Origin: Akkermansia muciniphila ATCC BAA-835
Lineage (GTDB): Bacteria > Verrucomicrobiota > Verrucomicrobiia > Verrucomicrobiales > Akkermansiaceae
Length of the DNA stretch: 32,000 nucleotides
Assembly: GCF_000020225.1 (NCBI RefSeq)
Contig: NC_010655.1
Span: forward strand, 330,001-362,000
Direction: 5' to 3'
Below, piece after piece: positions 20,462 through 32,000 of the stretch; the stretch's first letter is position 1; every line of letters starts with the position of its first letter. The translations under genes and the position numbers were made by a program. Under the pieces are notes generated by a model that did not search any database, was not told the DNA's origin, and saw nothing but the letters and a program-made list of their open reading frames with translations.

Positions 20462-20555
20462 CATCACATTATTCCGGGGAAAAAGAGCCATCTTTCCACC
20501 CTCTCCCGGACAGGTAGGGATTGAAAGAAAAAAACTTTATGCTACCCTTTTGCCC

Positions 20556-23228
<2,673 letters not shown>

Positions 23229-23246: not shown

Positions 23247-24089
23247 ATGAATAATATTCAAAAGTACTTTGCCGGCCGCGAGCAATTCATTGAATTGCTT
23301 GAAGCGGTGGGCATACGTACTCTTGAACAATTCGCTTCCGCGGACCCCTCCACCGTTTTGCCTGAACTTCACCAGGCAAAACGGATGCTGAAACTGCAGA
23401 CGGAAATTCCTTCCGCTCCCGTTTTCAGGGAATGGGTGAATCAGGCTCTTTCCTCTCCTACTGCGCCGGAACCGGAGCTTCTTCCCATCCATGAGGGCGA
23501 CGGCCTCCCCCTTGCCACTCCCGTTGACCCTCCGATTACTGATTCTTTAGAAAACAGAAGGGAACGTGGGCGTTCCCATACGGACGGACCTCCAAAACAT
23601 CTCTCCGCTAAGGCCAGGCTGCAGGAAGAACACAGCTACCAGCCCGCAAAACATGTTCACACCCACAAGGAGCCGAAAACCTACCTTCGCAAAAAAGGCA
23701 TCAAGCACATGACCTCCTTCCGGACATGGATGGGAGCCGTTATCGTCCTGCTCCTGTTCATCTGCATCCTCTTCTCCATTTCGGTCACCACCCTTGTGCT
23801 TCTCAATGGAGAACGAGGCTGGCCGTTAATCAGCCTCTGCTTCGGCCCCTGGATTCTGGCGCTGGTTCTCTATCTTTCCCTGGCGCTTCCCCGGAAATGC
23901 AGCGTGTGCAGGGCCCATGTCTTTTCCTTTAAAAAATACACCCGCAATAAGGCGGCCCACCACATTCCCCTGTTCGGCTACGTATTCGCCACGGCACTGC
24001 ATATATTCCTCTTCCGCTGGTTCCGTTGCCCGGCCTGCGGTTCCTCCCAGCAACTGGGAAAACCCCGTACCGAACCGCACAGGCATTAA
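23247..24089 (+). CDS. Hypothetical membrane protein with a Cys-pair (split zinc-ribbon-like) C-terminus
   Basis: 280 aa. Soluble N-terminal helical region 'FIELLEAVGIRTLEQFASADP' (HhH-like), a basic low-complexity linker, and TM segments. 'CSVC' and 'CPAC' pairs are separated by a hydrophobic hairpin. Starts 18 nt after valS. Confidence 0.6.
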   Translation: MNNIQKYFAGREQFIELLEAVGIRTLEQFASADPSTVLPELHQAKRMLKLQTEIPSAPVFREWVNQALSSPTAPEPELLPIHEGDGLPLATPVDPPITDSLENRRERGRSHTDGPPKHLSAKARLQEEHSYQPAKHVHTHKEPKTYLRKKGIKHMTSFRTWMGAVIVLLLFICILFSISVTTLVLLNGERGWPLISLCFGPWILALVLYLSLALPRKCSVCRAHVFSFKKYTRNKAAHHIPLFGYVFATALHIFLFRWFRCPACGSSQQLGKPRTEPHRH

Positions 24090-24650
24090 CGAAGCTTAAT
24101 TCCTGCGCCAGGCTTCACGGTATCCCGGCCTCCTGCCTCCTTTCTTCCCCTTACCTGGCATTCGGAAGGCGGTTCCTCCATCTGTCCGTCCCTTCCATTA
24201 TCTGCCCCTATTCCCTGCACTTCAACCCCACGCTCTGACGGGACAGGAAGCCCCTGCCCGCTTCCGTATCTCATGGAACGGCTCCCGGCAACGAATCCCC
24301 CCTTCCCGGTAACTTATTCTATAAAGAGCCACCATTAGGAACCGCCTCAAAACCGGATCGGAAAAATCCGGCAAGAAGGCCGTTTCTCCGTCTCTTCCGG
24401 ATAAATACGTTTCCTCCTTCCTCCGGATATCCCAGCAACTCAAACATGCGTTCAACGTCATGGAAAAGCATATCCCTGAAAACGGCAGTCCAGGAAAACA
24501 AGCGGACATTTCAACAACCGGAATTCCCCCTTCATTAACCTATTCCGGATTTGCCGGCCTCGTGCGCCAGGCAAGGGCTGCGCTCCGGCAACCTTCTCCC
24601 TATATGGGAAGCACACCGTAATGAAAACTTATCAGAAAAACGGGGACAAT

Positions 24651-24684
24651 AAAAAACGCCATCCTCCTTTTCGGAGGATGGCGT
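24651..24684 (-). terminator. Strong rho-independent terminator immediately after rplN
   Basis: Perfect 12-bp stem (plus strand acgccatcctcc 24656..24667 and ggaggatggcgt 24673..24684) with a 5-nt loop. On the minus strand it is followed by a T-run. It starts 22 nt after the rplN TAA. Confidence 0.85.
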
Positions 24685-24706
24685 CCAAAATCCTGAGGCG
24701 TCTCGG

Positions 24707-25072
24707 TTAGAGCACTTCCGGAGCAAGGGAAACAATCTTCATGAACTTCTTTTCACGGAGTTCACGAGCGACCGGCCCGAAAATACGGGTGCCGCGCGGG
24801 TTGTTGTCCTTGTCGATGATGACGACGGCATTGCCGTCAAAACGAAGCACGGAACCGTCATCACGGCGAATCGGGGCGGCAGTGCGCACTACCACGGCCT
24901 TCACCACGGTTCCTTTCTTCACGGAAGCGGTGGGAATGGATTCGCGGATATGGCAGGTAATAATATCGCCAATGTGAGCCTGACGGGTGCGCTTGCCGAT
25001 AACGCCAATCATCTTGGCGGAGCGGGCGCCGGTATTGTCGGCTACCTGGACTAGGGATTCCATCTGGATCAT
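24707..25072 (-). CDS. rplN: 50S ribosomal protein L14 (uL14)
   Basis: 121 aa: '[16 protein letters not shown]...GDIITC.I.......[13 protein letters not shown]'. Confidence 0.97.
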
Positions 25073-25109
25073 GGTATCAAATCTCCTTTACTTAATGGTT
25101 GATTCCTGA

Positions 25110-25382
25110 TTAATGGGTAAGCACTTCCACCAGTTCCCAGCACTTCAGCTTGGAAAGCGGGCGGGTTTCAACGATACGTACCTTATCGCCTACCTTGGCC
25201 GTGGAATTTTCGTCATGGGCATAGAACTTCTTGCTCTTCTTGACGATCTTCTTGAACTTGGGGTGCGGAACGCGGGCAACGTATTCCACAACGATGGTCT
25301 TGTCCATCTTGGTGGAAGTCACCACGCCGACGCGCGTCTTGCGAAGGCCGGGCTTCTTGGTTGTTTCGGTTTGTTCGGACAT
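25110..25382 (-). CDS. rpsQ: 30S ribosomal protein S17 (uS17)
   Basis: 90 aa: '[19 protein letters not shown]......[20 protein letters not shown]...[16 protein letters not shown]'. Confidence 0.96.
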
Positions 25383-25430
25383 TGGATTCTAAAAGTGTTA
25401 GAATATTCTGTAATTACCGGAAATCCTCAA

Positions 25431-25634
25431 TTAAACCTCCCCGGTTTCACCCTTAATGGTAAGGGCGCGGGCAAGGTCCTTGCGGACGGTGCGAATTCTC
25501 TGGTTGTTTTCCAGCTGGCCGGTGGCCTGCTGGAGGCGGAGATTGAAAAGTTCTTCACGAAGGCTGCGCACCAGAGCGGAAAGCTCCTTGGCGGACATAG
25601 CACGAAGTTCTTTGGCGGAGTTCTTATCGGACAT
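25431..25634 (-). CDS. rpmC: 50S ribosomal protein L29 (uL29)
   Basis: 67 aa: 'ELRAMSAKEL...LREELFNLRLQQATGQLENNQRIRTVRKDLAR'. Confidence 0.95.
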   Translation of the reverse strand: MSDKNSAKELRAMSAKELSALVRSLREELFNLRLQQATGQLENNQRIRTVRKDLARALTIKGETGEV

Positions 25635-25648
25635 GGTGATGAGTAGCT

Positions 25649-26071
25649 TTAGTGTTGAACGCCTTGACGATAGACGAAGCGGGTGGATACGCCCAGCTTG
25701 TTGGAAGCCAGTCGAAGGGCTTCACGCGCCTGGGATTCGGTCACGCCGCCTACTTCAAACAGAATGTTGCCGGGGCGGACAACGGCTACCCAGCCTTCCA
25801 CGGCGCCCTTACCCTTACCCATACGAGTATCCGGGGGACGGGACGTAAAGGATTTCTGCGGGAAAATGCGGATGAACACCTTACCTTTACGTTTCAGGTA
25901 ACGGTTGATCGCAATACGGCAGGCTTCAATCTGGTTGTTGGTGATCCAACCGCGGTCGAGCACCTGAAGGCCGAAGTCACCAAAAGCAACATAGGTACCG
26001 CTGGTGGCATTGCCGGAACGGCTGCCGCGGTGCATCTTGCGGTGCTTCACTCTCTTGGGCATTAAAGGCAT
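25649..26071 (-). CDS. rplP: 50S ribosomal protein L16 (uL16)
   Basis: 140 aa: '[13 protein letters not shown]...G..V.FGDFGLQ' and 'IRIFP....T..P...RMGKGKG'. Confidence 0.97.
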
Positions 26072-26123
26072 ATCTTATTCCTCCTTGTGTTAAGTGTGAT
26101 GAACAAATGTGGTAGCGGCTTTC

Positions 26124-26813
26124 TTAGGCGCGCGGACGACGGGGTCCGCGAGGGCCGGACGGACGGGAATTCTGCTGGGAGACGACTTCATCGCGCTTGT
26201 TGACCCAGCACTTCACACCGATGATGCCGTACAGGGTACGGGCTTCGGCAAAGCCGTAGTCAATCGGAGTGCGGAGCGTCTGCAACGGCACCTTGCCTTC
26301 GCGGTACCATTCGGCACGGGCAATGTCAGCCCCGCCAAGACGGCCGGCGCAGCGGATGCGGATGCCGTCGGCCCCGCGTTCCATGGCAACCTGCACGGCG
26401 CGCTTCATGGCGCGGCGGAAGGAAACGCGGCGTTCCAGTTGAACAGCCACGTTCTCTGCAATAAGCTGGGCGTCCGTTTCAGGGGAACGGATTTCCACAA
26501 TGTCAATGTTGACCTGGGTGGAAGCGCCGCACAGGCCCTGGAGGTACTGGCGGATCTTTTCAATTTCCTCACCCTTGCGGCCAATGACAAGCCCCGGACG
26601 GGCAGTGTGGACGGTGATGCGGACACTGTTCCAGGCGCGTTCAATCACGATGCTGGAAACGGCGGCGGACATCAACTGTTCCTTGATGTACTTGCGCATC
26701 ACCAAGTCTTCATGCAGCTTGGTGGCGTAATCCTGGCCCGTGGCGTACCACTTGGAGCGCCAGTCCTTGTTGACGGCGAGGCGGAACCCGATTGGATTTA
26801 CTTTCTGACCCAT
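26124..26813 (-). CDS. rpsC: 30S ribosomal protein S3 (uS3)
   Basis: 229 aa: '[24 protein letters not shown]', a KH domain, and '[23 protein letters not shown]'. Confidence 0.97.
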
Positions 26814-26852
26814 GATATTAGTTCAGCTATATGTGTGTTAGATTGGTATGGC

Positions 26853-27191
26853 CTAGCCTTCTTGATCGGCCAGGATAACGGTGATATGGGATGTACGCTT
26901 GCGGATCATGTTGGCGGATCCGCGGGCGCGGGGCATCGTGCGGCGCATCGTGGGCCCTTCATCGACCATGACGGACTTGACCACCAGCGTATCAACGGAC
27001 AGTTCCGCATTATTCTCGGCGTTGGCCAACGCGGACTTGAGCGTCTTATTCAGCAGGTAGGCACCTTTCTTGGGGGTGTAGGACAGGATGTCGGTCGCCT
27101 GGGAGACGGACAAGCCTTGGATTTCTTGAGCAACATCGCGCATCTTCTTGGCGGAGATGCGGGCGTATTTGTAAACAGCTTTCACTTCCAT
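26853..27191 (-). CDS. rplV: 50S ribosomal protein L22 (uL22)
   Basis: 112 aa: 'ARISAKKMRDVAQEIQG.SV..A..IL.YTPKK.A....K.L.SA.ANAE'. GAGGA lies upstream of the ATG. Confidence 0.96.
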   Translation of the reverse strand: MEVKAVYKYARISAKKMRDVAQEIQGLSVSQATDILSYTPKKGAYLLNKTLKSALANAENNAELSVDTLVVKSVMVDEGPTMRRTMPRARGSANMIRKRTSHITVILADQEG

Positions 27192-27229
27192 GGGTTTTTC
27201 CTCGTAGTGCAGGTTATTATGAAGATGAT

Positions 27230-27940
27230 TTAGTCGTTGGTTTTTACTGAGGCAGAATCTCCGACGCGCACCGGATCGGCTGGCGTCTCAAGTTTCTGAA
27301 CAAGCGCGCCACATACTTCCTTGCGGACGTCCGTGACTACGGCTTCTCCGATGGTTTGAGCTCCCCGGGTTAACCGAACCGGCATCCCGACTTGCATTCC
27401 TGCCGTTCTGCCGGTATTCAGCACCACCACTCCGGATTCGGAATCAATGCTGAGCACCTTGGCTTCCGCCAGGGTTCCCGCGCCATCTCGCACGGGCTGT
27501 TGCCTGTATCCCAGAACGGATTCCAGCAGGCGCAGAGAACTCTCCACAGCCGTCCTGGCATTCGCATCTTCGGATATGGCTTGTTTCATGTAGGCAAGGA
27601 TGGCTCCGGAGAGCTTGACGGATGCCTGCTCCAGCCGCTGGACGCGGTCATTAAAAGCTTCGATGTCCGCCATCGCCTGAATCAGGCGTTCCTCGCTGTT
27701 ACCTAGCGCAGCGCCCCCCAAAGCTTCCAGCCTGGAACGGATGTCCACCAGCTGTGCGGCCGCCTTGTCGGCGTCGCTGCGGGCCTGGACATAGGATGCC
27801 TTGAGGGCCGCATTCTGCTTTTCGAGGCGCTCGATTCTGCGCGTCAGTGCCGCCGTATCCTCTTCCGCTCCCTGCAACGCCCCGCCCAGCCCTACCAGGG
27901 TGGTAAGAGAGTATGCAAGGATGGAAGAAGAATTCGACAT
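27230..27940 (-). CDS. Hypothetical coiled-coil protein with an N-terminal hydrophobic segment and a C-terminal beta-rich domain, embedded between rpsS and rplV
   Basis: 236-aa ORF with an ATG start, on the same strand as the operon. It starts 20 nt after the rpsS stop and ends 38 nt before the rplV start. N-terminus 'ILAYSLTTLVGLGGALQGA'. About 120 aa are rich in A/L/E/R/Q ('RRIERLEKQNAALKASY', 'RVQRLEQASVKL'). C-terminal 'AKVLSIDSESGVVVLNTGRTAGMQVGMPVRLTRGAQTIGEAVVTDV'. It resembles no ribosomal protein. Confidence 0.75.
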   Translation of the reverse strand: MSNSSSILAYSLTTLVGLGGALQGAEEDTAALTRRIERLEKQNAALKASYVQARSDADKAAAQLVDIRSRLEALGGAALGNSEERLIQAMADIEAFNDRVQRLEQASVKLSGAILAYMKQAISEDANARTAVESSLRLLESVLGYRQQPVRDGAGTLAEAKVLSIDSESGVVVLNTGRTAGMQVGMPVRLTRGAQTIGEAVVTDVRKEVCGALVQKLETPADPVRVGDSASVKTND

Positions 27941-27960
27941 GTTGATTGTTAACTTACTGA

Positions 27961-28230
27961 TTACTTCTTACCGATACCGCCGTGCTGTTTGAAGACACGA
28001 GTCGGGGCAAATTCACCAAGCTTGTGGCCTACCATGTTTTCCGTGACGTACACGGTGGCAAAGTTCTTGCCGGCGTGCACCAGGAAAGTCAGGCCGACGA
28101 AGTCAGGCGTAATCATGGATGCGCGGCTCCAGGTCTTGATCGGCTTGCGGTCGCCGGATTCAAGCTGAGCGTCGATCTTGGCGAGAAGCTTTTGGCTGAC
28201 AAAAGGGCCTTTTTTGAGAGAACGTCCCAT
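27961..28230 (-). CDS. rpsS: 30S ribosomal protein S19 (uS19)
   Basis: 89 aa: '[11 protein letters not shown]...L..K........K..IKTWSR.S.I.P.FVG.T..VH.GK.F..V.V...[13 protein letters not shown]'. Confidence 0.97.
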
Positions 28231-28265
28231 GTTATATAATCCTAGTTAAAGTTATAATATATTGA

Positions 28266-29102
28266 TTACTTGGCATTGCGGCGCTGTACGATGACGGAGT
28301 CGCTGGGCTTGCGGAGACGGCGGGTCTTCTGGCCCTTGACGTGGCCCCACGGAGATTTGAGGTGCTGGCGACCGCCACCGGACTTGGACTTGCCTTCACC
28401 GCCACCGTTCGGGTGGTCGACGGGGTTCATCGTCATACCGCGCACGGTAGGACGAACGCCCATCCAGCGGGTACGGCCGGCCTTGCCGGACATTTCGTTC
28501 ATGTGCTGGGTATTGCCTACCTGGCCGATCGTGCAGTAGCAATCTTCATTGAAACGGCGGATTTCACCGGAAGGCATCTTGATCAGCGCGTAACCCGCTT
28601 CACGGTTGGAAACGATGGCCTGCTGGCCGGCAGCGCGGGCTACCTTGCCGCCGGAACCCGGACGAATTTCAATGTTGTGAACGGAAGTACCCAGAGGAAC
28701 GTTTTTCAAGGGCATGGCATTGCCTACCTTGGGAGCAACCTTCTGGCCGCTTTCCACCTTCATGCCCACCTGCAGCCCCGTGGGGGCCAGAATGTAGGAT
28801 TTTTCACCATCCTTGTACTCAATCAGAGCAATGCGGCAGGTACGGTTGGGATCGTATTCGATAGTAAGGACAGTAGCGGGCACGTCAAACTTGTTGCGTT
28901 TGAAGTCCACCAGGCGATATTTGCGCTTATGGCCACCGCCAATGTGGCGGGTGGTGATGCGGCCATTGTTATTGCGGCCGCCGGATTTCTTGAGGGGTCT
29001 GCAGAGACTCTTTTCCGGGGTAGAGGTGGTGATTTCGTCAAAGGACGGCCACACCTTGTAACGGTTAGAGGGAGTAACTGGCTTGAATGACTTGAGGGAC
29101 AT
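28266..29102 (-). CDS. rplB: 50S ribosomal protein L2 (uL2)
   Basis: 278 aa: 'GRNN.GRIT.RH.GGGHKR.YR..DFKR' and '[15 protein letters not shown]'. Confidence 0.97.
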
Positions 29103-29128
29103 GATAGCTTTCCTTCCTAATAGGGGCT

Positions 29129-29413
29129 TTAAACGAGGTCAAGGGTTTCACCGTTGGCAAGCTTGACGTAAGCTTTTTTCCAATGAGCGGTGCGACCTGC
29201 ATCAGAGCGGCGCTGGCGCTTGAGCTTGCCGTCATAGTTGGCGGTACGCACGGATGCGACCTTCTTGCCGAAAGCAACTTCGACAGCCTTTTTGATTTCG
29301 ATTTTGTTGGCGTCACGATCAACTTCGAAGACCAGCTCGCCGGTAGTTTCCTGGAGCATGGTGGCCTTTTCGCTGATGCGCACCTTCTTGATGACTTGGT
29401 AAATGTCTTTCAT
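29129..29413 (-). CDS. rplW: 50S ribosomal protein L23 (uL23)
   Basis: 94 aa: '[14 protein letters not shown]......[24 protein letters not shown]'. Confidence 0.95.
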
Positions 29414-29419
29414 GGCTTC

Positions 29420-30028
29420 TTAAGCAGTACGGCTGGCGAGGGTTTCTAAAGCGTTGTCAACGAGGATCACTGCATCAGCATTCATGAGCTGTTCAATGTT
29501 CACTTCCGCAGCGGTCATCAGGAGAACTTCCTGAACGTTGCGGGCGGCACGGTAGGTGGTTTCGTCAAAGGAAGCTGCCACAATGAGCACCTTCTTGGCA
29601 TCCGTCAGGTCTTTGACGGCTTTGATGAAAGATTTGGTCTTGCCGTCAGCCACGGAAAATTCGGAAACGGTGCTGACCTTGGAAGCGGCAATCAGGTCAC
29701 CCAGTACGCGGCGCAGAGCCAGGCGTCGGGTGCTCTTGTTCACCTTCTTGCTGTAGTCGCAGGGGCGGGGACCGAAGACCACGCCGCCGCCCACAAAGAT
29801 GGGAGCGCGCTTATCGCCGTGACGGGCATTACCGGTGCCCTTCTGGCGGAATATCTTTTTGTTATTGCCGCTGACTTCTGCGCGGGTCTTGGAATTGGCG
29901 GAACCGGTGCGGCGGTTCGCCTGGTAAGCCACGATCAGGTCATGCACAGCCTGGGAGCCCTTGTCACTGCCTACAACCTGGATGTTGGCGGCGGCGGCGG
30001 CTTCTAATGTAAAGGTATTTGCGGACAT
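29420..30028 (-). CDS. rplD: 50S ribosomal protein L4 (uL4)
   Basis: 202 aa: 'RQKGTGNARHGDKRAPIFVGGGVVFGPRP.DYS.K.NKK'. Confidence 0.96.
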   Translation of the reverse strand: MSANTFTLEAAAAANIQVVGSDKGSQAVHDLIVAYQANRRTGSANSKTRAEVSGNNKKIFRQKGTGNARHGDKRAPIFVGGGVVFGPRPCDYSKKVNKSTRRLALRRVLGDLIAASKVSTVSEFSVADGKTKSFIKAVKDLTDAKKVLIVAASFDETTYRAARNVQEVLLMTAAEVNIEQLMNADAVILVDNALETLASRTA

Positions 30029-30069
30029 AGATAGGTTTTCCTATAATCAATGTGAGGTTAACTAAAGCC

Positions 30070-30705
30070 TTACTTCTTCTTGGCGGGGCGAATCACGAGG
30101 TAGGAACCGCGCGCGCCGGGCACAGCCCCGGAGATAAGGATGACATTATCTTCCGGACGAACGGCGACAACCTTCAGGTTCTGCACCGTGCGCTTGGCAT
30201 TGCCCATCTGTCCGGGCATCTTCTGGTTCTTCCAGACGCGGCCGGGGGTGGAACAACCGCCTACGCCGCCGGTACGGCGGTGCATCATGGAACCGTGGGC
30301 GGCGGGAGAGCCGTGGAAGTTGTGGCGGCGCATCGCCCCCTGGAACCCTTTGCCTTTGGAAGTGCCGATCACATCCACCCACTGTCCGGCGGAAAAGAGA
30401 TCCACACCGGGATCTTTTGCGCCTTCAGCAGGCAATTCGGATGCTTCTACGCGGAATTCCTTGAGGAGTTTGGTAGGCTGGATGCCCAGTTTCTTGAAGT
30501 GGCCGGCCTGAGGCTTGGCCACGCGGCTTTCCTTCTGCGCATCAAAAGCAACCTGGATAGCATTGTAGCCATCCTTGTCTTCTGTTTTAATCTGAGCGAA
30601 GGTGTTACCCTTGACGTCAATGACGGTCACGGGAACCATAGCGCCGGATTCCTGGTCAAACAGACGGGTCATACCGACCTTTTTTCCGATAAGTCCTAGA
30701 GCCAT
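30070..30705 (-). CDS. rplC: 50S ribosomal protein L3 (uL3)
   Basis: 211 aa: 'GLIGKKVGMT..F......VPVTVI' and 'GTSKGKGFQGAMRRHNF.G..A.HGS..HR..GS.G'. Confidence 0.97.
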   Translation of the reverse strand: MALGLIGKKVGMTRLFDQESGAMVPVTVIDVKGNTFAQIKTEDKDGYNAIQVAFDAQKESRVAKPQAGHFKKLGIQPTKLLKEFRVEASELPAEGAKDPGVDLFSAGQWVDVIGTSKGKGFQGAMRRHNFHGSPAAHGSMMHRRTGGVGGCSTPGRVWKNQKMPGQMGNAKRTVQNLKVVAVRPEDNVILISGAVPGARGSYLVIRPAKKK

Positions 30706-30750
30706 TGTAGTGTGTCTTTCTGTTTTTTAATTACTTATCCGGGTGCCAAA

Positions 30751-31059
30751 CTAGATGCGGATCGTGATGTCCACCCCGGCCGGAAGATTAAGCTTCTTGA
30801 GCTCATCAATCGTGCGCGCAGTCGGGTCGACGATGTCGAGCAGACGCTTGTGGGTGCGGATTTCAAACTGTTCAGCCGATTTTTTGTTGACGTGAACGGA
30901 ACGGTTCACAGAAAACTTTTCAATACGGGTCGGCAACGGAATCGGGCCGTGAACTTTGGCTCCGGTGCGCTTGGCGGTTTCAACGATCTCCTGGGAGGAG
31001 CGGTCGATGGCGCGGTAGTCGAATGCGCGGAGTCGAATGCGGATTTTTGGACTTTGCAT
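30751..31059 (-). CDS. rpsJ: 30S ribosomal protein S10 (uS10)
   Basis: 102 aa: '[10 protein letters not shown]....D.S...[10 protein letters not shown]...GPIPLPT' and '[12 protein letters not shown]...L..L.LPAGVD'. Confidence 0.97.
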
Positions 31060-31096
31060 GGACGTGCGGTCTATTGGTTATACTTCAAAGGTTTGT

Positions 31097-32000
31097 TTAT
31101 TTAGCCTTCTCGCTGACAATCTGGTCAACGAGGTTCTGGGGCACCTGTTCAAAGTGGGAGGGTTCCATGGAATAGGAAGCACGGCCACTGGAAAGGGTTC
31201 GGATGGCGGTGGAATAACCGAACATTTCGGACAAGGGGACCATAGCTTTCAAAATGCAGGCGTTGGCCTTGTTTTCCATGTTGCTGATCTGGCCGCGGCG
31301 GCGGTTCAGGTCGCCCATGATGTCGCCCTGGTAATCGGTCGGCGTGGAAGCTTCAACGGACATGATGGGTTCCAGCATGATCGGCTTGGCTTTTTTGAAA
31401 GCATCCTTCATGGCGAAGATGGCAGCCATTTTGAAAGCATTTTCATTGGAGTCCACTTCGTGGTAGGAACCGTCCACCACTTCAACGTGCACGTCCACCA
31501 CCGGATAACCGGCGACGACGCCCGTGGTCATGGCTTCATTAAGGCCGGCATAAACGGCGTTCATGTATTCCTTGGGAATGGCGCCGCCTACGATCTTGTT
31601 TTCAATGGTAAGCCCCTTGCCGCGTTCGTTCGGCTTCACATCGATGACCACATGGCCGTACTGGCCGCGGCCACCGGACTGCTTGACCAGTTTGCCGTCG
31701 CCATGGGCAGGGGCAGTAATGGTTTCGCGGTAGGCAATCTGGGGCTTGCCGATATCGGCTTCCACCTTGAATTCACGCATCAGGCGGTCAATAATGATTT
31801 CCAGGTGAAGTTCACCCATGCCGGAAATCAGGGTCTGACCGGTTTCTTCATCAGTCTTCACCCGGAAAGTCGGGTCTTCTTCAGACAGACGGCCCAAGGC
31901 ATTGGACATTTTTTCCTGGTCAGCCTTGGTCTTGGGCTCTACCGCCATGGAAATAACGGTTTCCGGGAAGGTGGGGGGTTCCAGGCAGATATCATTGTCC
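31097..32000 (-). CDS. fusA: Elongation factor G, C-terminal part (5' end lies beyond the window)
   Basis: '[62 protein letters not shown]', domains III to V. The reading frame is open to the window edge. Confidence 0.95.

Follow-up and report, generated by a model that had tools for sequence, protein, structure and literature searches.

A non-ribosomal gene for a predicted exported coiled-coil and beta-barrel protein between rpsS and rplV in the S10 operon of Akkermansia muciniphila and other Verrucomicrobiota

The string of genes from rpsJ to rpsQ is among the most invariant gene orders of bacteria. Passenger genes are known from operons of ribosomal proteins, e.g., secY, adk, map, infA, and rpoA in the spc and alpha clusters, or secE–nusG preceding rplK. 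These passengers are near-universal and are located at the edges of operons or within the spc and alpha clusters, whereas the gene considered here, Amuc_0299 of Akkermansia muciniphila ATCC BAA-835, lies in the interior of the S10 operon, between rpsS and rplV, is found in one phylum, and belongs to an uncharacterized family. The stretch of DNA analyzed (hereafter, the window) comprises 32,000 nt, positions 330,001–362,000 of NC_010655.1, and the coordinates given below refer to it. Like the passengers of the secY/secE type, Amuc_0299 is encoded on the strand of its operon, is tightly spaced, has long been kept in place, and has a product seemingly belonging to the envelope/export side of the cell. 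The insertion is ancient and its placement is invariant across the several orders of Verrucomicrobiota sampled. Overall, these findings are best explained, with moderate confidence, by a housekeeping gene coupled to the S10 operon whose product would be an oligomeric periplasmic scaffold. Both the placement and the family appear to be undescribed: no description of an rpsS–rplV insertion or of the Amuc_0299 family was found in the literature searched, including the paper on signature markers of the Planctomycetes–Verrucomicrobia–Chlamydiae (PVC) bacteria.

The open reading frame (ORF) in question occupies positions 27230..27940 (-) and, according to the ORF listing of the window, comprises 711 nt with an ATG start, encoding 236 aa plus a stop codon. 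As counted from the sequence, it is separated by 20 nt (27941–27960) from its upstream neighbor rpsS (S19, Amuc_0300; 27961..28230 (-), placed by the ORF listing and the locus tags of a supplement) and by 38 nt (27192–27229) from its downstream neighbor rplV (L22, Amuc_0298; 26853..27191 (-), placed by the ORF listing and an RNA-seq supplement). The minus strand of the window reads fusA (partial), rpsJ, rplC, rplD, rplW, rplB, rpsS, the ORF, rplV, rpsC, rplP, rpmC, rpsQ, rplN, so that, apart from the ORF, the order of the S10 operon is canonical and all its genes share the strand of the ORF. The earlier note on this DNA, written from the letters and an ORF list, had described a same-strand ORF of this length with these gaps between rpsS and rplV, and its coordinates were exact; its impression that the base composition matches that of the neighboring genes was likewise borne out, the GC content of the ORF (0.595) and that of its third codon positions (GC3, 0.650) falling inside their range.

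The product of the ORF is identical to ACD04141.1/UniProt B2UMT5 of A. muciniphila ATCC BAA-835. In the supplement of a published RNA-seq study (PMC11480725), the entry flanked by L22 and S19 reads “Amuc_0299 hypothetical protein”, and since the locus tags flanking the ORF are Amuc_0298 and Amuc_0300, the ORF is Amuc_0299; the corresponding tags in a proteomics supplement are Amuc_0300/B2UMT6 for rpsS and Amuc_0295/B2UMT1 for rpmC. In the searchable literature, Amuc_0299 is mentioned in no paper text. In pairwise Nei–Gojobori comparisons of ten Akkermansia species-level genomes, the ratio of nonsynonymous to synonymous substitution rates (dN/dS) amounted to 0.148 for the ORF and to 0.028, 0.026, 0.019, and 0.049 for rpsS, rplV, rplB, and rpsC, respectively; within the ORF, it was 0.11 in the coiled coil, 0.16 in the barrel, 0.36 in the N-terminal 26 codons, and 0.37 in the linker. 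Hence, the ORF is protein-coding, is under purifying selection, and evolves several times faster than its neighbors; it is a genuine protein-coding gene. The notion of a spurious ORF or a recent mobile insertion might draw on the annotation, which reads only “hypothetical”, and on the lack of matches to curated families, but it conflicts with the purifying selection, the hundreds of homologs sharing invariant residues, the native composition, the same placement across orders (see below), and the absence of repeats or mobile-element genes near the ORF in the ORF listing of the window. This notion is already refuted, and its probability is practically negligible; the assignment of 27230..27940 (-) as an Amuc_0299-family gene, a non-ribosomal insert in the S10 operon, is supported by the ORF listing, the identity to the database entry, the dN/dS values, and the homologs.

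The phylogenetic spread of these homologs is considerable. Of the 1.84 billion cluster representatives (50% identity clusters) covered by a profile search, 781 matched at E ≤ 1e-3, and stricter cutoffs of 1e-10 and 1e-30 retained 356 and 86, respectively; the homologs are mostly full length (236–305 aa) and reach down to 25% identity. The arrangement S19–ORF–L22 occurs in all ten Akkermansia species genomes. The same is true of ten distant contigs (L011, L012, L014, L015, L016, L017, L018, L019, L020, and L101), e.g., L011 from a “Verrucomicrobiota bacterium” with a genome of 7.8 Mb, L015 from Chthoniobacter sp., and L016, which is 2.25 Mb long; these contigs encode members 27–41% identical to the window protein and carry the gene between Ribosomal_S19 and Ribosomal_L22 in 10/10 cases. 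Between the window and the distant loci, the identity is 67–76% for L2, 71–83% for S19, and 56–66% for L22, compared with 27–41% for the inserted protein. A metagenome scan yielded 299 relatives, and the flanks were scored in the best 80 of these loci together with L019 and L020 (82 in total): wherever the upstream DNA was long enough to tell, S19 was directly upstream (67/67 loci), L22 was directly downstream in 65/65 testable loci, and both were present in 52/52, i.e., with zero exceptions. Judging by source names, the carriers include Akkermansia spp., Akkermansiaceae, Verrucomicrobiales, Verrucomicrobiae, Chthoniobacteraceae, Chthoniobacter, and “Verrucomicrobiota bacterium”; once a single mis-binned contig is accounted for (see below), the family-bearing loci sampled belong to Verrucomicrobiota only.

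A further hint comes from Verrucomicrobium spinosum, where rplV is VSP_RS22555 and rpsS is VSP_RS22565 in a series of tags rising by five (PMC12283558, Data file 8). The tag skipped between them, VSP_RS22560, lacks an E. coli ortholog in that table, which suggests the same insert; the ortholog table is also devoid of rplX, rpmC, and fusA, so this gap in the tags is a weak sign. Taken together, the placement in Akkermansia, in the distant contexts, and in the metagenome loci agrees with the view of the earlier note that the insertion is not recent. A widespread annotated family commonly found at this site had been named by the note among the results that would speak against its reading. The family is indeed widespread and holds the same slot, but it is unannotated and was seen only in Verrucomicrobiota, which strengthens the finding and does not trivialize it.

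The invariance of the position admits a reading in which its biological meaning is nil. The gene could have an envelope function of its own and have landed once in the S10 operon, where the slot is meaningless and is retained as a frozen accident, since rearrangement of an essential, densely packed operon is deleterious. None of the loci departs from the rigid order of genes along the operon, the dN/dS of Amuc_0299 exceeds that of its neighbors 5–7-fold and its codon adaptation is lower, as would be the case for a passenger, and every observation made here is compatible with this explanation. Still, over the divergence sampled (L2 67–69% identical), one would expect that the gene had at least occasionally been duplicated and its copy in the operon then lost, but 0 of 52–67 testable loci deviate; moreover, the ribosomal cluster of Akkermansia is broken after rplN, so the region is not immune to rearrangement. 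This is the main rival of the housekeeping gene coupled to S10 and it concerns the significance of the gene, not its identity; we regard it as possible, if rather doubtful.

Whether the gene shares the transcript of its neighbors can be approached from the junctions and from published counts. A sequence scan revealed no terminator-like or promoter-like site in either the rpsS-to-ORF junction (27941..27960 (-); A-rich, unstructured) or the ORF-to-rplV junction (27192..27229 (-)), whose assignments come from the sequence, the site scan, and folding; the RNAs of the two junctions are no more stably folded than their shuffled counterparts (z = +0.99 and +0.02), and an Rfam scan of 24000–32000 returned nothing relevant. 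The negative result is meaningful because the same scan detected a strong intrinsic terminator, a 14-bp stem followed by a T-run, at 24654..24686 (-), 21 nt past rplN, where the operon ends. Thus, the earlier statement that neither side of the gene carries a hairpin or a terminator was confirmed against a positive control, and an internal terminator or promoter isolating the gene, named by the note as evidence that would speak against co-transcription, was found in neither junction.

The expression data were taken from the supplement of Geerlings et al. 2024 (PMC11480725), which gives the DESeq2 baseMean and log2 fold change (log2FC) for one contrast. For Amuc_0299, the baseMean was 2944, the log2FC 2.07, and the reads per nt 4.1. 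The respective values were 991, 2.59, and 3.7 for rpsS (Amuc_0300); 4557, 2.09, and 5.4 for rplB (Amuc_0301); 827, 2.56, and 2.9 for rplW (Amuc_0302); 1032, 2.05, and 3.0 for rplV (Amuc_0298); 2491, 1.76, and 3.6 for rpsC (Amuc_0297); and 948, 0.79, and 2.2 for rplP (Amuc_0296). Both the reads per nt and the log2FC of Amuc_0299 are, therefore, within the ranges spanned by Amuc_0296–0302 (2.2–5.4 and 0.79–2.59, respectively). Supplementary Table 1 of the same study lists soy and mucus counts of 10,823 and 3,342 for Amuc_0299, 4,903 and 1,161 for rpsS, and 17,043 and 11,137 for rplB (PMC11480725); this table is read as one of transcript counts, not as a proteome, because it includes RNA genes. 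The mRNA of Amuc_0299 is as abundant as that of the flanking ribosomal genes and is regulated with it. The junction scans and the published RNA-seq counts support co-transcription of Amuc_0299 with the S10 genes, as the earlier note had expected, and the gene displays the traits of a passenger of a ribosomal protein operon: strand, short junctions, lack of insulating sites, and mRNA like that of its neighbors.

Two entries of Supplementary Table 1 (PMC11480725) stand apart. The count of rpsC (Amuc_0297) is 185,820 in mucus vs. 12,704 in soy, far out of line with its operon neighbors, and the count of rplV (21,837) is also high. Incorrect read mapping or the persistence of an RNA fragment could be the cause.

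At the level of translation, the earlier note had pointed out that the 20-nt leader of the ORF lacks a Shine–Dalgarno (SD) motif and that GAGGA precedes rplV in the downstream junction. Both observations are correct, but the conclusion that the gene is translated in a deliberately different way did not survive the comparison with the other genes, most of which also lack the motif: in the window, rpsJ, rplC, rplW, rpsS, rpsC, rpmC, and rpsQ are without it, and SD-like motifs were found only before rplD, rplB, rplV, rplP, and rplN. In eight distant loci, SD-like motifs precede 0–5 of the 8–17 ribosomal protein genes and never the inserted gene, which suggests largely SD-independent initiation in these Verrucomicrobiota. 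What does set the ORF apart is its codon adaptation to ribosomal-gene usage, 0.41 in the window vs. 0.61–0.78 for the ribosomal protein genes and 0.58 for valS; in six of the eight distant loci, the inserted gene scores lower than any ribosomal protein gene does in a leave-one-out comparison. Poorer codon adaptation would translate into a somewhat lower protein output per mRNA, so that Amuc_0299 probably yields less protein per mRNA than the ribosomal protein genes, as judged from codon usage.

The product does not resemble a ribosomal protein. Its isoelectric point (pI) is 5.3 (family median 5.46) vs. 9.8–11.4 for all twelve neighboring ribosomal proteins, and Pfam, NCBIfam, and PDB sequence searches returned no match to any ribosomal protein or RNA-binding family. 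The N-terminus is uncharged and hydrophobic, and residues 1–25 are disordered in the full-length AlphaFold model. Among 388 full-length members of the family, an uncharged hydrophobic run with a median of 17 residues starts near residue 8; it is preceded by K/R in 69% of the members, and a lipobox-like Cys is found in only 9%. A small-x-small motif, which is a permissive one, occurs in 98%, with typical ends being ASA/Q, AQG/A, and AFA/Q; no second hydrophobic segment was detected across the 388 members. The N-terminal segment is also the one under the weakest constraint (dN/dS 0.36, close to that of the linker). Features of this kind fit a type I Sec signal peptide, so that the product of Amuc_0299 is probably exported via a signal peptide predicted for residues 1–25 (27866..27940 (-); hydrophobic run ILAYSLTTLVGLGGAL, then ...LQGA/EE). 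The description given in the earlier note, that of a non-ribosomal, envelope-type protein with an uncharged hydrophobic N-terminus, is in accord with these results.

The same note had kept open a second option, a ribosome-associated factor, which can be widened to a lineage-specific ribosomal protein of the cytoplasm. A gene embedded this deep in the S10 operon, with an mRNA level equal to that of the ribosomal protein genes, would suit such a factor. Nevertheless, the acidic charge and the conserved segment resembling a signal peptide disfavor it, as do the lack of a match to the families mentioned above, the poor codon adaptation, and the fast evolution; consequently, it is regarded as exceedingly unlikely, and membership in the ribosomal proteins was rejected on the grounds of family matches, pI, and the N-terminus.

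The mature protein is predicted to combine a helical region with a beta-barrel. The full-length AlphaFold model has a mean predicted local distance difference test (pLDDT) score of 74.7 and a predicted template modeling (pTM) score of 0.36, with helices at residues 28–75, 80–119, and 126–143 and a six-strand beta domain at residues 160–232; the model of the domain only (residues 148–236) reached a pLDDT of 90.3 and a pTM of 0.79. The three-helix region, a putative coiled coil or helical hairpin (residues 28–143; 27512..27859 (-)), is delineated by the secondary structure in the AlphaFold2 model and by heptad periodicity: hydrophobicity averaged over the alignment repeats significantly every 3.5 residues in the first two helices (p = 0.019 and 0.021, respectively). 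Conserved elements of this region are ERLEKQN, RLEALG, and R129/E133/R137. The predicted barrel (residues 160–232; 27245..27463 (-)), of a fold like that of FlgT_C, the F1-ATPase crown, and MreC, is delineated by the domain model, Foldseek, and invariant alignment columns. Residues G177, G185, R206, G211, and D228 are invariant in the family, and G75, R129, E133, V173, N175, R192, and G227 are nearly so. A coiled-coil hairpin followed by a barrel is, thus, a reasonably well-supported model of the product, and it agrees with the heptad-like stretch of about 120 residues (about 115 helical residues in the models) and the beta-rich C-terminal domain of about 75 aa that the earlier note had discerned by eye.

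No curated family claims this protein. Single-protein searches of Pfam, NCBIfam, and PDB sequences gave only coiled-coil noise; the window protein matches neither FlgT_C nor MreC in Pfam at E ≤ 10, and no member of the family reached a curated threshold. Sub-threshold matches were seen in distant members, to FlgT_C in 9/35 (best E = 7.5e-5) and to the MreC barrel in 3/35; the FlgT_C match of one relative (P0281) scored 16.9 bits vs. the gathering threshold of 27 bits, and one family member has a precomputed PF16538 match. A profile of the barrel domain gave weak matches to TsaP (E = 0.027) and to the beta-hybrid motif of membrane-fusion proteins (E = 0.006). In Foldseek searches with the domain model, FlgT was found as 8z5n_0 (E = 7e-4, template modeling (TM) score 0.68) and 3w1e (query-normalized TM 0.71), and the N-terminal “crown” barrels of the F1/V1-ATPase alpha/beta subunits at TM 0.60–0.68 with a root-mean-square deviation of 2.6–3.0 Å over 76–83 residues; the full-length model retrieved MreC (2j5u, 7eft; E = 4e-3 to 9e-3). 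The modeled barrel, therefore, falls into an established class of folds characteristic of ring or scaffold proteins in the periplasm, but the family as a whole appears to be new. The likeness to MreC and membrane-fusion proteins suspected in the earlier note is recognizable by Foldseek and weak profiles, with FlgT_C being the closest.

The nearest fold relative, the C-terminal domain of FlgT from the Vibrio flagellar H-ring (PF16538; 3w1e, 8z5n), has the same six-strand barrel fold, and both proteins would be periplasmic. Unlike FlgT, the window protein lacks the N and M domains, has a coiled coil instead, and is encoded in an S10, not a flagellar, context; the S10 operon was the gene context in all 100 loci examined. 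Akkermansia is non-motile. Assignment to FlgT_C was rejected, since the window protein has no match to PF16538 at E ≤ 10 and its relatives all remain below the gathering threshold. The crown barrel of the F1/V1-ATPase gives the best geometric superposition with the modeled barrel and forms a ring through lateral contacts, but the identity is 10–18%, the window protein is without a nucleotide-binding domain, and the compartment and the genomic context differ, so the resemblance is confined to the fold. TsaP, the protein associated with the type IV pilus secretin (3jc8), likewise forms a ring in the periplasm and has C-terminal domains that have been called FlgT-like. Its weak match to the barrel motif N.G...GV..G...I.R (E = 0.027) is not significant, and TsaP differs from the window protein, which has no LysM domain, in architecture and genomic context.

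MreC (PF04085; 2j5u, 7eft) shares with the window protein a hydrophobic N-terminal segment followed by a coiled coil and a related beta-barrel. This order lends itself to another interpretation, i.e., a membrane-anchored factor of morphogenesis or division retaining an uncleaved anchor, a bitopic coiled-coil protein in the manner of MreC, DivIC, or FtsB, which would organize peptidoglycan synthases. Along with the architecture of anchor, coiled coil, and beta-barrel, the sub-threshold MreC barrel matches and the Foldseek hits to MreC, it is favored by weak coiled-coil matches to DivIC, ZapB, and GpsB and by the N-terminus of the Akkermansia protein, which lacks a canonical n-region and an AxA site. 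At the same time, the hydrophobic run is short and ends in most members in the classical sites listed above, so the N-terminus is more like a cleavable signal peptide; there is one barrel where MreC has two, the gene is not in an mreBCD operon, the family scores are below threshold, and the data available for V. spinosum record a canonical essential mreC beside mreB elsewhere in the genome (PMC12283558). An MreC ortholog was rejected on the score of the NCBIfam MreC model (NF010518; 10.4 bits vs. the cutoff of 385 bits), the single barrel, and the separate mreC of V. spinosum, and the anchored factor in the broader sense is considered unlikely.

The combination of a small, predicted exported barrel with long helical hairpins also brings to mind a periplasmic “jellyfish” holdase, an analog of Skp or prefoldin in which the barrel would form the body and the hairpins the tentacles, the supply of the chaperone being matched to the protein output. 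Ring formation by barrels of the same fold is known from FlgT and the F1-ATPase crown, and the presence of export genes in ribosomal protein operons (secY in spc, secE by nusG–rplK) offers a precedent. On the other hand, neither the sequence nor the fold matches Skp/OmpH or prefoldin, and the order of the domains is unlike that in Skp: membership in Skp/OmpH (PF03938) was rejected because there was no Pfam match, no such protein among the top Foldseek lists, and a different domain order. A holdase of this kind is decidedly improbable.

The explanation preferred here, a periplasmic scaffold made in step with ribosomes, can be envisaged as follows. The gene would have entered the rpsS–rplV interval in an ancestor early in the history of Verrucomicrobiota, and the slot would have been kept since. 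Possessing no promoter or terminator of its own, Amuc_0299 would ride on the polycistronic S10 mRNA, its level tracking the mRNA of the ribosomal proteins. The Sec signal peptide would direct the product, which would not be a part of the ribosome, to the periplasm. The mature protein of about 210 aa, acidic, would consist of a heptad-periodic helical hairpin, a third helix, and the six-strand barrel; the barrels may self-associate or dock on an envelope partner, with the coiled coils projecting outward. An oligomeric scaffold is proposed because barrels of the same class (FlgT, TsaP, MreC, the F1-ATPase crown) mediate rings or lateral contacts, and it is likewise by analogy that a periplasmic scaffold (or, alternatively, holdase) function may be suggested. 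Residing on the S10 transcript, the gene would tie the supply of an envelope component to the growth rate.

Several points weigh against this explanation. The positional invariance may mirror the rigidity of the S10 operon alone and not a need for co-expression, and the distribution was established for the named carriers listed above. The signal peptide was read from the N-termini by a heuristic, not by a trained predictor; in A. muciniphila, the run is not preceded by a positive charge and the site, LQGA, is non-canonical, so an uncleaved membrane anchor is possible. Amuc_0299 is absent from one secretome list that includes S19, and it has no entry in the outer-membrane, human milk oligosaccharide (HMO), and co-culture proteome supplements, which are partial tables. 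The barrel fold is generic: the Foldseek E-values only span 7e-4 to 1e-2, and no hidden Markov model (HMM) threshold was passed. Finally, the oligomerization and the binding partner are conjectured purely by analogy.

Even so, a non-ribosomal gene for a predicted exported protein fixed inside the S10 operon across a major lineage is a rare case. The arrangement S19–gene–L22 is easy to score and could serve as a marker of Verrucomicrobiota in metagenomes, where it has already exposed one mis-binned contig. It also points to an uncharacterized and probably abundant envelope protein of A. muciniphila, a medically important bacterium whose surface and periplasmic proteins (e.g., Amuc_1100) are studied as host effectors. 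Furthermore, it provides a concrete case in which the coordination of envelope synthesis with the output of ribosomes can be studied in bacteria, the more so as genetic systems exist for A. muciniphila and V. spinosum. A bolder proposition, which we consider improbable as it stands, is that of a new, probably essential periplasmic component of the Verrucomicrobiota envelope, an oligomeric scaffold or chaperone built of a coiled coil and a beta-barrel, whose production became linked to that of ribosomes early in the phylum through the fixation of its gene within the S10 operon; if true, it would represent a phylum-defining synapomorphy together with a new mode of coupling of envelope growth to translational capacity.

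As to lineage-restricted proteins described earlier, CT421.2, a signature protein of 53 to about 80 aa, is common to all PVC phyla (PMC3444138). Like CT421.2, which was proposed as a phylogenetic marker, the Amuc_0299 family comprises hypothetical proteins confined to a lineage of PVC bacteria, but an identity of the two was rejected given the length of the Amuc_0299 family (236–305 aa), its different architecture, and its occurrence in Verrucomicrobiota only. In IMG, the product is labeled “uncharacterized protein (UPF0335 family)”, which is probably a coiled-coil artefact; the identity with UPF0335/DUF2312 was rejected, since this family is missing from the Pfam matches at E ≤ 10.

The mis-binned contig mentioned above (L101; DATFPI010000970.1, 2.2 kb) comes from GCA_035264925.1, a metagenome-assembled genome labeled Pyrinomonadaceae (Acidobacteriota), and carries L2–S19–insert–L22. 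Its S19, L2, and L22 are 82–92% identical to those of Verrucomicrobiota loci, so the label is taken for a binning error and the contig, by its sequence, is almost certainly a mis-binned one of Verrucomicrobiota. The length of L22 encoded downstream of the insert varies as well, being 112 aa in the window and 117, 126, 135, 150, 165–179, and 228 aa (the latter in L019) elsewhere, which implies lineage-specific extensions of L22 among Verrucomicrobiota.

With the insert, the whole S10 operon, rpsJ to rplN, extends over 24707..31059 (-) in the ORF listing, with rpsJ at 30751–31059 (-), rplB at 28266–29102 (-), rpsC (Amuc_0297) at 26124–26813 (-), and rplN, the last gene, at 24707–25072 (-); no tRNA was detected in the window. 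In Akkermansia, the cluster of ribosomal protein genes stops after rplN and rplE is distant (Amuc_0926), whereas in L011, L012, and L014 rplN continues straight into rplX–rplE–rpsH–rplF–rplR–rpsE. Because rplE is remote in Akkermansia while other Verrucomicrobiota loci run on to rplX–rplE, the S10/spc supercluster is concluded to have been split in the Akkermansia lineage. Between valS (20550–23228) and the operon terminator, an ORF of 280 aa (23247–24089 (+)) runs toward the end of the S10 operon on the opposite strand; its product has a hydrophobic center and a C-terminal CxxC...CxxC motif.

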